Below, piece by piece: positions 3,310 to 56,891 of a stretch of 64,000 nt of DNA. The notes beneath the pieces are model-generated. The model was not told the DNA's origin, did not search any database, and saw only the letters and a list, made by a program, of their open reading frames with translations. Both the position numbers and the translations under genes were made by a program. The DNA comes from Marinicella sp. GTDB lineage: Bacteria > Pseudomonadota > Gammaproteobacteria > Xanthomonadales > Marinicellaceae. The DNA lies in contig OZ246001.1 of assembly GCA_965230295.1 (NCBI GenBank), positions 2,112,001-2,176,000 of the forward strand. Direction: 5' to 3'. Numbering within the stretch: position 1 is the first letter of the stretch; each line of letters begins with the position of its first letter.

Positions 3310-3463
3310 CGTGAACTGAAGTCCACGCTCCAAGTGTATCGTCATTCCGGCGCAGGCCGGAATCTAACACCTTTCTTAAGGTGTCAACATAAGAAACAAT
3401 TCGAATGGAGAACAAAACATATGGCCTACTAAGATTATGGATACCGGCCTGCGGCGGTATGAC
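3310..3463. repeat. REP-like cluster: CTGAAGT-core palindrome plus inverted pair of GTCATTCCGG-type repeats
   Basis: CGTGAACTGAAGTCCACGCT (3310-3329); GTCATTCCGGCGCAGGCCGGAATCT (3341-3365) and inverted GGATACCGGCCTGCGGCGGTATGAC (3439-3463), between convergent genes. Confidence 0.85.
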
Positions 3464-9131: not shown

Positions 9132-9316
9132 GGAGATTGCATCGTTGCTACGCGCCACGCAATGACCAGTTTGATGGGTCGTAGGCTTCAGACCACATTT
9201 AAGCTTCGGACCCACCAGTTCACTTCGACTCCGCTCAGTGAACGGATTGATTCGTTGGCTGAGCGGAGTCGAAGCCCTGTATAAAATACTCATTAAGAGC
9301 GCGGACTTCAGTCCAC
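9132..9316. repeat. Mosaic REP-like cluster (three families)
   Basis: GGAGATTGC...CGCAATGAC (9132-9166); inverted pair CACTTCGACTCCGCTCAGTG (9221-9240) / GGCTGAGCGGAGTCGAAGCC (9257-9276); GGACTTCAGTCC-core copy at 9298-9316 and degenerate copy near 9177-9196. Confidence 0.85.
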
Positions 9317-9401: not shown

Positions 9402-10445
9402 ATGGCTGAAGAATCGATCACCATAACCCAACCTGATGACTGGCATGTGCACTTGCGCGATGATGCCATGTTGCAACAGGTGGCCCATTACACTGCGCGA
9501 CAATTCGGTCGGGCCATCATCATGCCAAATTTAACACCGCCAGTGACTACGGCTGCGATGGCAGCGGCTTACCGTGATCGAATCAAAGCAGCGACCCAAG
9601 AATATCCAGGTTTTAAGCCATTGATGACGGCTTATTTAACCGACGACATGGATCCGGCAGAAATTGTCAATGGCCATGCGGATGGGGTGTTCACAGCGGC
9701 CAAATTATACCCGGCCAATGCCACCACCAATTCAGCAGCAGGTGTCACCGATGTGACCAAGATCTATCCAGTGCTAGAAGCCATGCAACACCATGGCATC
9801 CCATTGTTGGTACACGGTGAGGTGGTCAGTGATGACATCGATGTGTTTGATCGCGAAGCTGCGTTCATTGATCAAATCATGCAGCCCTTGCTCCAAGCCA
9901 TGCCTGAGTTGAAAGTGGTGTTTGAACACATCACCACCAAGGATGCTGCTGATTTTGTGGCCGCTGGTCAAGACAATCTGGCTGCCACCATCACAGTGCA
10001 TCATTTACAGATCAACCGCAATGACATGCTGGTTGGCGGGATCAAACCGCACTTGTATTGTTTGCCGATTGCCAAACGCGAATTACACCGACAGGCGTTA
10101 AGAAAAGCAGCGACATCTGGTTCCGCTCGATTCTTCTTGGGCACCGACACCGCACCACATGCCATTGGCGATAAAGAAAGCGCTTGTGGATGTGCCGGAA
10201 TCTTCAGTGCACCGCATGCTTTGGAAAATTATGTGCAGGTGTTCGAAGAAGAAGGTGCTTTAGACCAATTTGAAGCCTTTGCGTCACTCAATGGGCCAGC
10301 CTTTTATGGTCTACCGGTTAACAACAAAACCATCACTTTAGAAAAACTCAGTCAACCAGTACCAGCTTCAATTGGTCACGGTGCTTTGTCTATATCACCC
10401 TATCGAGCAAGCGAAACCATTGCTTGGCGACTGAAGGATGAATGA
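9402..10445 (+). CDS. pyrC: Dihydroorotase (type II)
   Basis: [44 protein letters not shown]. Confidence 0.97.
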
Positions 10446-10463
10446 AGACCCAAGAACATTCCT
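10440..10463 (-). repeat. Solo left-end motif of the 1812/55563 element
   Basis: Reverse complement AGGAATGTTCTTGGGTCTTCATTC, 23/24 identical to 1814-1837; overlaps pyrC stop. Confidence 0.8.
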
Positions 10464-10477
10464 CTAATTGGACTGTT

Positions 10478-17550: not shown

Positions 17551-17763
17551 CTGGATCCCGGATCGGAGTCTGGGATGACGATTCTTTCCGGTTCGAAGTT
17601 TACGCTTCAACAAGATCACTGTCATTGCGAGACTTCGAAGAAGTCGTGGCAATCTCCTGGTTCTTGGGTTGAGTTTTCAAAAATTTTACCTTTTAAAACG
17701 AGGACTGAAGTCCTGGCTCCGAAACATTTCAGGTCAAATCGATTGGGCTGAACTACACGCTCC
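17551..17763. repeat. Mosaic REP-like cluster (three families)
   Basis: CTGGATCCCGGATCGGAGTCTGGGATGACG (17551-17580); GTCATTGCGAG...GTGGCAATCTC (17621-17656); AGGACTGAAGTCCT (17701-17714); degenerate copy near 17744-17763. Confidence 0.8.
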
Positions 17764-42730: not shown

Positions 42731-42846
42731 TGGAGAGCTGATGATCAGCTCGACCAGCGCAGGTCATGAGAATTTGACGGCTTACCGTGGTCTCGGTCTC
42801 TGTTCCCGACTCGACCCTAACACCGCTGTCCATAGCGGCGGCTTTC
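42731..42846. ncRNA. Structured small RNA candidate (from memory similar to proteobacterial sRNA sX9)
   Basis: GC-rich island in an AT-rich spacer; hairpins GAGCTGA-TGA-TCAGCTC, GACC/GGTC and CCGCTG-TCCA-TAGCGG; family and strand not verified. Confidence 0.5.
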
Positions 42847-42868
42847 ATTTTTGTTAAGAACATATAAT

Positions 42869-42892
42869 GAATGAAGACCCAAAAGCATTCCT
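42869..42892 (-). repeat. Solo left-end motif of the 1812/55563 element
   Basis: Reverse complement AGGAATGCTTTTGGGTCTTCATTC, 21/24 identical to 1814-1837. Confidence 0.7.
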
Positions 42893-42944
42893 TTTTTGGT
42901 AAGATTCATACACTGCCTACGGAACCAGTTTTGACACATTATTC

Positions 42945-55340: not shown

Positions 55341-55496
55341 AGTTACTCCAAGGCTTTTTTATGAAATATCATTCAACGATGTAGTTTACATCAAATACCT
55401 GATAATTGAATGAACTTTTTGTCGAATTATCGCTGCTACAGGTATTAAAGCCCATGAATGCATTCAATACTGTGATTGAGTCGCAGTTTTATCACG

Positions 55497-55563
55497 ATTT
55501 ACCCGGCAAAACCCCACCTATATGGCTTTTTGTCACCATTGATGGGGTAGATTCTGGGTAAAT
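55497..55563. repeat. Long imperfect hairpin abutting the structured element
   Basis: ATTTACCC...ACCCCA...ATGG / CCAT...TGGGGT...GGGTAAAT nested inverted repeats. Confidence 0.6.
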
Positions 55564-56196
55564 AAGGAATGTTCTTGGGGCTCCATTCTGGTTCATGGTC
55601 TGACAGGTCTTCATATTTGCTGCGCAAATAAACCGACCTTTACAGACTATTGTTTGAGCAGTTGCTTCGCACTGCATGTCTGTTCCAGACAAAAGTGAAA
55701 ACGACTGCTTACATGGATGTAAGTATGCAGCGATAGCAGGCAGGAATTGTTCCCAACAATTCTCTGCATTCACCCCGTCCTGGGGATCGATGCGGTAGCT
55801 GCCGAGGCGAACATGACTTGCTACCTCGCACGCACTACGGCATTCAAATCGGGCTTCTTTATCTTCGATAAAACCGCCCAACTTTCATTGCCTGTGCTAT
55901 AACGCCATTCACATAAGGTTTCTTGACTTCGTCAAATCACCATATGTTCATTGGCTATTCTCTTCGCCTCTGATTGGCTTACATGGAAGTAAGTCCTCTG
56001 AGGAGGCAGGATGCCGGTATCAGAGGTGACTACATGGATGTAGGTCTGCCGCGATAGCAAGGAGCGATAGCGGCCGCAACATCAATAGCTCACGGCTTAT
56101 CGCTCATTGCATAAAGGTTCCTTTGCTTCGCAAAACCACCTTTATTCCACTCACTGCCTAACCGGCTTGGCGGGTCAAGCTGCTCAGCAGCTTTCC
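55563..56196. repeat. Long (634 bp) copy of the dispersed structured element with five hairpin inserts
   Basis: Blocks 55563-55588, 55681-55705, 55806-55829, 55960-55975, 56075-56093 and 56160-56196 match 1812-1961 in order; last block 36/37 identical. Confidence 0.92.
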
Positions 56197-56260
56197 GATC
56201 TATCACCGTTGGCGATTCATCAACCTGTTTTGAGTTGTCCCTGGATGAATCATTAGGGCT

Positions 56261-56851
56261 TCAGTATTTCTTTTTGGCTTGGGCTAGCCATGCTTGGTTG
56301 AGTCTCTTTTTGTCAGCTTCATCAAAGATAACCAGCTTGACAGGTTTTTCCCCTTGTTTGATTTTTTCCCATGTTTTGTTGGCTTTTTGTAGCCTCTTGC
56401 TGGCTTTCTTTGGGTCTTTGTCCGTTTTACTGTGCCAGTTGTTTAAACCATTCACAGGCTGGCCTTTGAATGAGCCATCCCAGAATAACAACAGTTGTCC
56501 ATCGATGATTTTATAGGATTGAGGGTTGGCTGGGGTTAATTGTCCACTGCCAGAGAGCATCAGTGAACACCAGCCACCATGAGCCGGCAAGTAGTCTTGC
56601 GGGTTGGCTTTGAACAGATCCAGTTGTTCCTGATTGGTCAGGTGGTAGGTGATGCCGTTCACTTGATGGGTAAATTCAGCCTTACCTAACTCTGCTTTGT
56701 TGTCGGTGAAATAGGAAACCGGACTGTAACCATCTATACCCAAACCATTTGAATCAATCCTGATAAATGACGCTGTATCGGTGTCAGCCTGGATGTTCGC
56801 CGTTGTAAAAATGACCATCAACATCAAGAGTTTTAATCGAATTGTGTGCAT
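56261..56851 (-). CDS. YHS domain-containing protein (Cys form), secreted
   Basis: GIDGYSPVSYF, FKANP..YLPAHGGWC, YKIIDGQL.LF; GAGG RBS before ATG 56851. Confidence 0.85.
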   Translation of the reverse strand: MHTIRLKLLMLMVIFTTANIQADTDTASFIRIDSNGLGIDGYSPVSYFTDNKAELGKAEFTHQVNGITYHLTNQEQLDLFKANPQDYLPAHGGWCSLMLSGSGQLTPANPQSYKIIDGQLLLFWDGSFKGQPVNGLNNWHSKTDKDPKKASKRLQKANKTWEKIKQGEKPVKLVIFDEADKKRLNQAWLAQAKKKY

Positions 56852-56891
56852 AAAGACCTCGTTGTAAATCATTTATTGAGCGACAATGAAA

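Follow-up and report, generated by a model that had tools for sequence, protein, structure and literature searches.

The composite BOX repeats and the bacterial interspersed mosaic elements (BIMEs) are the closest known kinds to the repeat family described here, a short and a long member of which lie in a 64,000-nucleotide (nt) stretch of DNA from Marinicella sp. (NCBI GenBank assembly GCA_965230295.1, contig OZ246001.1, positions 2,112,001 to 2,176,000, forward strand; the whole stretch is hereafter the window). BOX elements of Streptococcus follow the order boxA-boxBn-boxC, with extra box modules in S. suis, and span 67 to 637 bp; their internal modules fold alone and leave the scaffold undisturbed, and module number differs between loci (PMC3049150; PMC3184786). 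The same sources describe BOX with terminal inverted repeats, target duplications and a candidate insertion sequence (IS) partner. BIMEs are mosaics of repetitive extragenic palindromic (REP) units in alternating orientation joined by short linkers, and they and the REPINs that go with REP-associated tyrosine transposases (RAYTs) are tied to Y1 enzymes that act on single strands (PMC2817692; PMC3116915). ERIC-type elements (named for 'enterobacterial repetitive intergenic consensus') carry inverted ends, target duplications and a flanking TA, according to one of these sources (PMC3184786). Short bacterial repeats are usually read either as IS miniatures with inverted ends or as hairpins of the REP type that rely on a RAYT. 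The Marinicella family fits neither: its members are built on a folded scaffold of about 150 nt, with or without hairpin cassettes.

A covarying scaffold with nested hairpin cassettes

The short copy (1812-1961) and the long copy (55563-56196, 634 nt), both on the forward strand, are members of one non-coding repeat family. Six blocks, collinear and on one strand, are common to the two. An earlier reading of this DNA from its letters alone (the sequence-only reading) had pointed them out, and both the collinearity and the identities it gave hold: 25/26 in block 1, 23/24 in block 3 and 36/37 in block 6, with block 5 weak. Its picture of a non-coding, non-autonomous, multi-copy element of no described family is likewise borne out. 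The coding potential of the long copy is negligible; a 129-residue open reading frame (ORF) at 55492-55881 (-) falls within the repeat, and ORFs of that sort elsewhere in the genome are explained by repeat copies. No description of the family was found in the literature, including a search for 'Marinicella' together with 'repeat' (papers' supplements lay outside the search).

Far from existing in only these two copies, a prospect the sequence-only reading had allowed for, the family pervades the closed genome (4.008 Mb, 44% G+C). BLASTN with the short and the long copy returned 213 and 263 high-scoring segment pairs at about 94 loci, with E values down to 1e-74 and below, and fuzzy searches of the whole genome picked up the 5' head 124 times and the 3' block 67 times. 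Heads paired with a 3' block, that is, complete copies of the subfamily, number 65/124 and sum to 22.2 kb. Fourteen of these are 149 nt long, the length class of the window's short copy; seven are 236 nt, four 356 nt and seven 633 nt, with many between. Of the other 59 heads, most come from sister subfamilies in which the 3' half has diverged, and a few are solitary small hairpins. Copies are intergenic by crude ORF calls.

The scaffold itself is not the passive 150-bp spacer of the sequence-only reading; its several helices form a conserved fold that covaries. Diverged members, folded independently by minimum free energy, converge on one architecture, and RNAalifold, given 20 aligned cassette-free members, found 22 pairs, 12 of them with compensatory changes. 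An extended structure of 37 pairs, comprising P0, P1, P2a, P2, P4 with its extension, and P6, pairs in 89.1% of alignment cells; sliding the 3' partners by one to three columns leaves 41-50% paired, a control somewhat favourable to the structure because the latter was drawn partly from the sequences tested. Twenty of the 37 pairs show changes on both sides, a level reached by 0/500 shuffles, which ignore relatedness. The fold is closed end to end by P0 (GGAA/TTCC). Within it, the long-range helix P1 (ATGYYC/GRRCAT) joins block 1 to block 3 and encloses a hairpin domain, P2a plus P2; P4 closes an internal loop with the near-invariant strands YCTGAY and RCCAACC, between which the hairpin P5 varies freely; and P6 forms the terminal hairpin. 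Pairs invariant within the genus covary in copies from another family of the order, as exemplified by P1, where CCGTTC/GAACGG replaces ATGTTC/GAACAT.

A covariance model built from the cassette-free alignment, R1, scores the short copy at 162.8 bits. It also finds a diverged sister-subfamily copy with the same fold at 42732-42894 (-) (50.1 bits, E 6.8e-12). The full long copy folds with a z score of -6.5 on the plus strand and -9.4 on the minus strand. The Rfam comparison that the sequence-only reading had called for gave no match at the gathering score across the whole window, and, at E up to 10, only miRNA-hairpin noise for the short copy. A pseudoknot between CTTGGG and CCAACC was considered and dropped: both motifs are invariant in the genus, and sister-genus copies keep CCAACC without TTGG. 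The invariant loop was also weighed as a hammerhead, a K-turn or an integron attC; the motifs that define these seem to be absent, and all three readings were set aside (no formal test was made).

Followed from its 5' end on the plus strand, the long copy alternates scaffold blocks with inserted cassettes. Block 1 (55563-55588), the 5' head, holds the 5' strands of P0 and of the covarying P1 together with an invariant CTTGGG. It is followed by cassette I1a (55589-55645), an H-type hairpin with 44 full-length matches, all at a ..CATTC/TGG junction (the slash marks the cut). Next come the retained 5' arm of the scaffold hairpin P2 (ACTATTGTTT, 55646-55655), which aligns with short-copy positions 27-36, and I1b (55656-55685), a small hairpin in the P2 loop with 46 full-length matches at a fixed junction. 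Block 2 (55686-55705; 18/20 identical to the short copy) supplies the P2 3' arm and GAAAACGAC, which bears the 3' strand of P2a. Cassette I2 (55706-55805; 21 full-length matches) is a Y-type outer hairpin around an inner cassette (55741-55789), and block 3 (55806-55829) brings the 3' strand of P1 (GAACAT), which makes compensatory pairs with block 1. Two H-type cassettes stand side by side at site 3: I3a (55830-55898; 36 matches), which occurs at site 5 too, and I3b (55899-55962; 25 full-length matches), which occurs with or without I3a. Block 4 (55963-55975; 13/13 identical) carries the 5' strand of the covarying P4 and the start of the invariant loop, TCTGAT. I4 (55976-56074) takes the place of the P5 tip and includes a Y-type unit (56030-56074) and an extra 51-nt unit; it contains a direct repeat with 51-nt spacing, and the genome holds 33 Y-type matches, 12 of them with the extra unit. 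After the weakly conserved block 5 (56075-56093) comes the H-type cassette I5 (56094-56159; 19 full-length matches at a fixed ..GCCT/AACC junction, slash again marking the cut), and block 6 (56160-56196) completes the element with the 3' strand of P4, the terminal hairpin P6 and the 3' strand of P0.

In all, the inserts amount to at least nine hairpin cassettes, which nest and fall into two main types, H and Y. The sequence-only reading had counted five inserts; five sites stand, and the number of units does not, inserts 1 and 3 each being two units and inserts 2 and 4 each containing an inner cassette. The nine units are I1a, I1b, I2 outer, I2 inner, I3a, I3b, the I4 Y unit, the I4 extra 51-nt unit and I5; H-type units measure about 60-70 nt and Y-type units about 50 nt, with the inner units besides. 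Two further observations of that reading were reproduced. All five inserts are self-complementary, beating dinucleotide shuffles in folding on either strand (DNA z scores of -2.6 to -5.1, with 0-3/200 shuffles as good), and two types do alternate: inserts 2 and 4 have a 34-nt stretch in common at 85% identity, and inserts 1, 3 and 5 have a common hairpin core composed of a stem, CTTCTT, a small hairpin, AAACCR and the returning stem. In the H type the stems vary and both loop strands stay constant. The genome has 165 occurrences of this H motif and a shuffled genome has 6, and 134/165 of the genomic ones stand beside scaffolds; the search demanded complementarity, so these counts describe the motif and do not bear on covariation.

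Cassette content varies combinatorially, as the sequence-only reading had anticipated: the 65 complete copies display 26 architectures, with junctions that are identical from copy to copy instead of imprecise and scattered. I2-type units (21 full-length) occupy site 2 in 17 copies and site 4 in four, and I3a-type units occupy sites 3 and 5. At site 1 the long copy has two insertions, at its positions 27-83 and 94-123, around the 10-nt P2 arm; retention of this arm between I1a and I1b makes site 1 a case of two clean insertions, not of replacement. Every cassette lies at a scaffold helix tip or junction, so that the scaffold fold is kept. Searched singly, the cassettes gave same-strand matches within scaffolds (no more than 400 nt from a scaffold match on the same strand) in 38/44, 24/26, 23/25, 35/36, 28/29, 12/12, 34/34 and 27/28 cases, and no cassette had a match on the opposite strand near a scaffold anywhere in the genome. 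At least five of six apparent solo matches of I1 fall inside long copies by their coordinates. Since the cassettes are found almost exclusively in scaffolds and on one strand, they are not free-living MITEs (miniature inverted-repeat transposable elements), and the idea of modules as independent hairpin elements has to be given up.

Apparent cassette turnover, placement and distribution

The proposal that folded modules are both gained and lost draws support from the homogeneity of I1 and from a hybrid cassette. The 42 full I1 units have a mean pairwise identity of 97.8%, against 86.7% for the adjoining heads, and they occupy scaffolds from three subfamilies, told apart by diagnostic bases only 2-9 nt from the junctions. 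Ordinary gene conversion should drag flanking scaffold along, and the I1 pattern looks like transfer of the cassette only; such homogeneity across diverged scaffolds argues for cassette-level transfer. Long-copy BLAST against 23 relatives showed no I1a in other species of the genus; relatives of I2, I3a, I3b, I4 and I5 are present in other species at 72-92% identity. As for loss, the copy at 3441525-3441959 contains a hybrid cassette in which the I3b 5' half is joined to the I5 3' half, everything between having been removed. Hybrids of this kind show that cassettes are lost when like units recombine. Two copies are without the I1a core (positions 1-41 joined to 87-634), and in the copy at 2017078 I2 is without its inner unit.

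Long copies also resemble one another closely. With the window's long copy as query, nine more copies span the full length at 77-96% identity, seven of them at 93-96%. Mean pairwise identity is 96.0% among the seven 633-nt copies (the long copy included) and 93.0% among the 14 short ones; the greater likeness of the 633-nt copies suggests that the long architecture spread as a unit, and recently.

At the ends and flanks of the elements, no target duplication emerged when 2, 3 and 4 nt were compared at three offsets (0-11/65 copies match, none at 4 nt), and complementarity between the flanks was not found. Terminal inverted repeats amount to the 4-6 nt of end complementarity in GGAA/TTCC, and no IS with such ends was found; the lack of inverted ends and of target duplication agrees with what the sequence-only reading had observed. 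The flanks are A/T-rich. An A at position -3 in 66/102 heads is a weak preference, and no fixed target tetranucleotide was found at the 5' flank of these 102 heads. Past the 3' end the fourth base is G in 50/65 complete copies, after three mostly A/T bases (for example at 56197-56200 and 1962-1965). By eye the same G is present in sister subfamilies, and it reflects neither a target duplication nor pairing with the 5' flank.

Orientation is unbiased with respect to genes, the upstream gene being co-oriented in 38/65 copies and the downstream gene in 30/65 (crude ORF calls), and is biased with respect to replication. By cumulative GC skew, replication starts near 1.70 Mb and ends near 3.84 Mb, and on this division the strand that reads from block 1 to block 6 lies on leading-strand sequence in 49/65 complete copies (p 5e-5). 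For all heads the figure is 82/124, compared with 60% for ORFs, and the bias holds in 17/21 copies whose neighbours are both lagging-strand genes. The GC skew of the element itself, -0.09, is opposite to that of the leading strand, so composition does not explain the bias, which points to a replication-linked property at the DNA level. A strand bias of this kind is expected of single-stranded DNA (ssDNA) transposons such as IS608.

The long copy lies within 1.5 kb of pal, a position at which none of 22 genus relatives has an element. On the pal side, homology with the loci of 19/22 relatives ends short of the element by about 70 nt or more. On the other side, where a gene at 56261-56872 (-) matches no Pfam family, none of the 22 relatives has anything corresponding near pal. 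With homology ending before the element and the far side lacking a counterpart, the long copy sits at a synteny break (window 55492-56260).

Beyond this genome the family is concentrated in the genus. Short-copy BLAST matched 14/18 sampled relatives and 1/12 genomes of other families, and long-copy BLAST matched 17/23 relatives. Across the order, the covariance model matched 9/101 genomes, the window's own counted, in 3/48 genera; the others were 6/6 sampled genus relatives, one sister-genus genome and a single genome from a different family. A 30-mer of the head has exact matches in public records whose title is Marinicella gelatinilytica and in three metagenome-assembled genomes.

Several unusual forms deserve mention. 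A lone 5' head with no scaffold following, found by fuzzy head search, lies in the window at 10441-10464 (-). Elsewhere in the genome, solitary self-closing 5' heads (AAGGAATG, 12 nt, CATTCCTT) occur at 918515-918546, 205221-205252 and 3068953-3068984 of contig C1; these solitary hairpins have the look of the element in minimal form, or of the hairpin from which the scaffold grew. The stretch at 701206-701372 of the same contig is palindromic, with a head, an I1-like cassette variant (about 72% identity) and a reverse-complement head, the heads facing each other 167 nt apart. A tandem array at 1313006-1313529 (L100:4006-4529) holds 4.3 truncated units with a 122-nt period and the same fold, without the terminal hairpin. 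It is flanked by an amidohydrolase gene and a nucleoside transporter gene, and no dedicated gene was found beside it. Overlapping model matches suggest like arrays in two relatives (G015 and G008). A stand-alone HNH endonuclease gene (207 residues, L100:6294-6917) was observed about 1.8 kb from the array.

Proposed mobility weighed against other readings

With slightly better than even confidence, the family is read here as non-autonomous, selfish-looking intergenic repeats whose unit is a folded nucleic acid and not a pair of inverted ends. We infer that units and cassettes alike are mobile, with an ssDNA phase and with protein- or replication-based copying. On this reading, whole units have reached more than 100 intergenic sites with no duplication of the target; cassettes are gained or exchanged at exact junctions and are lost when like cassettes recombine; the bias toward leading-strand sequence, equivalent to the lagging-strand template, suggests that the fold may act as ssDNA exposed in replication; and some protein, or else a replication or template-switch process, would copy units and cassettes. 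A more specific scheme is offered tentatively and seems rather doubtful to us. It would have mobility at two levels, the scaffold moving and the cassettes homing to fixed scaffold positions, through recognition of a single strand (DNA or RNA) outside the known transposase families, with the YCTGAY/CCAACC and CTTCTT/AAACCR loops as recognition or catalytic sites.

Several observations weigh against a mobile folded unit. No mobilising enzyme was found, so that the word 'mobile' rests on distribution and on the similarity of copies. At site 2, forms with and without the cassette differ beyond a clean indel (CAC versus ..CGA), and simple insertion therefore fails to explain every junction. Mismatches point to neither strand as the one that folds, G-T outnumbering A-C in the helices by 36 to 26 in one alignment and trailing it by 13 to 19 in another, and module energies favour the plus strand in some cassettes and the minus strand in others. 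The strand bias is weaker in sister subfamilies (33/59), and the gene context rests on crude ORF calls. No pair of insertion and empty site was obtained, the orthologous pal site not being alignable across the element. Contigs of two public DNA runs break at the element ends, and no polymorphism was seen at the locus; apparent 'joints' inside the element in public contigs are other genomic copies of other architecture, not alleles of the long-copy locus.

The search for an enzyme bears directly on the very improbable reading that the family is a REPIN-like system, built of REP hairpins and moved by the genome's single RAYT-like Y1 transposase, or is a miniature derived from IS200/IS605. The absence of target duplication would suit it, as would the strand bias expected of ssDNA transposons, and there is indeed one Y1_Tnp gene (L020:1300-1863; 67 bits with NF047646, below the 80-bit cut-off). 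The HUH/RAYT check proposed by the sequence-only reading was to that extent rewarded, yet the gene pairs with a separate REP family and fails to co-occur with the element. It is flanked on both sides not by element blocks but by a different palindrome, ..CG-NN-GACTGAAGTC-NN-CGCTCC.., whose 10-mer core has 41 exact matches in the genome and which recurs in the window at 9303-9314 (-), 17702-17713 (+), 1604-1615 and 3313-3324. This GACTGAAGTC family and the RAYT-like gene look like an ordinary REP-RAYT system unrelated to the scaffold family. Homologs of the gene were not found in 7/8 other element-bearing genomes sampled and were found in two element-free sister-genus genomes, and the Y1_Tnp family was found in 1/5 element-bearing genomes; the 5' flank preference, moreover, is weak, and no target tetranucleotide is fixed. 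Neither a TnpB domain nor a reverse transcriptase, an IS110 recombinase (PF01548) or DDE_Tnp_1 was found in the genome (GIY-YIG and other nucleases were not searched), which leaves the IS110 and reverse-transcriptase leads of the sequence-only reading without a candidate; rve-domain genes number one. The genome thus looks very poor in ISs, yet it carries more than 100 structured repeats. An autonomous partner between facing heads or downstream of heads was sought and rejected, the genes there being housekeeping ones; between facing heads stand genes for HPPK, PGI, a ParA-like NTPase and dCTP deaminase, and for MipA and a two-component system. The trans-acting enzyme encoded elsewhere that the sequence-only reading had supposed is purely conjectural.

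Telescoping by deletion only, the long form being ancestral and the shorter ones arising by slippage or recombination across hairpins with no gain of cassettes, would account for the I3b/I5 hybrid, the two copies with a partial I1a deletion and the one I2 without its inner unit, and like cassettes within one element supply the homology needed. It is nonetheless quite unlikely. I1 is 97.8% identical in scaffolds of three diverged subfamilies with diagnostic bases 2-9 nt away; one cassette type occurs at two different sites; I1a is unseen in other species of the genus, where the other cassettes sit at 72-92%; the short copies are the older by divergence (93.0% versus 96.0%); and the most distant genomes hold cassette-free scaffolds. 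That the inserts are self-complementary and fall into families could suggest independent MITEs nested together, every insert being a small mobile hairpin in its own right that chanced to land in a 150-bp MITE. This is the hardest to credit, given that cassettes almost never occur outside scaffolds and never in opposite orientation near one, and that junctions are constant and target duplications absent. Structured noncoding RNA genes or cis-acting RNA, with cassettes as expansion segments of the sort seen in RNase P and large noncoding RNAs, would explain the strong covariation, the long-range helices, the invariant internal loop and the position of cassettes at helix tips and junctions; we nevertheless hold this to be unlikely. 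A scan found no sigma-70-like promoter in or beside either window copy; of terminator-like sites the short copy has none and the long copy a single weak one, inside I1b, no more than in shuffles. Orientation relative to neighbours is random (38/65 upstream and 30/65 downstream co-oriented), copies exceed 100 per genome with placement differing between species, and neither a G-U asymmetry nor an Rfam match is seen.

Comparison with known systems

If the reading as mobile folded repeats is right and a mobilising activity is found, it would amount to a novel means by which structured DNA or RNA is copied, and the cassettes would be a natural case of site-specific insertion of folded modules. Even a purely selfish family would be of use, with its covariance model serving genome annotation and its copies explaining assembly breaks. 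A fold with compensatory changes has been kept across at least three genera.

Set beside the described kinds of repeat, the family shares features with several and coincides with none of the accounts. ERIC, or intergenic repeat unit (IRU), elements of about 127 bp were reportedly described by Wilson and Sharp in 2006 as existing both in short versions and in longer ones, which have inserts at particular places inside them, and the coexistence of short and insert-bearing long forms is a likeness to the Marinicella elements; the inverted ends, target duplication and flanking TA described for ERIC were not found in the scaffold family, which is set apart by that description. Very small hairpins lying inside other repeats without target duplication are said to have been reported by Elhai and colleagues in 2008 as the small dispersed repeats of cyanobacteria. 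These are reportedly of about 20-30 nt and widely scattered, unlike the cassettes, which measure 30-100 nt and are confined to one scaffold family. The absence of target duplication and a replication-linked orientation bias recall IS200/IS605 miniatures, from which the family differs in that neither TnpB nor a fixed left-end target was found. It also differs from a classical MITE, which would have terminal inverted repeats matching an IS and a target-site duplication, and from an IS110 bridge-RNA element, the genome having yielded no gene for its DEDD recombinase (PF01548). With structured noncoding RNA genes it shares a conserved, covarying secondary structure.

The nearest resemblances remain those to BIME and BOX repeats. 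Like BIMEs and REPINs, the family consists of abundant intergenic palindromic units in mosaics. Unlike in BIMEs, all of its parts share a strand within a long-range fold, with no opposite-strand cassettes near scaffolds, and unlike REPINs it is without the genome's RAYT, which pairs with another REP family. Like BOX, it is a composite intergenic repeat with scaffold ends and optional self-folding internal modules. BOX has mainly tandem copies of one module in one place, whereas the Marinicella scaffold accepts at least nine cassettes, nested, at five fixed sites; neither inverted ends, nor target duplication, nor an IS partner was found for it, so that the two are set apart by description, and their host lineages are unrelated. 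Relative to composite repeats, then, what is new is that the family, for which neither inverted ends nor target duplication nor an IS or RAYT partner was found, combines many nested cassette types with a long-range covarying fold.

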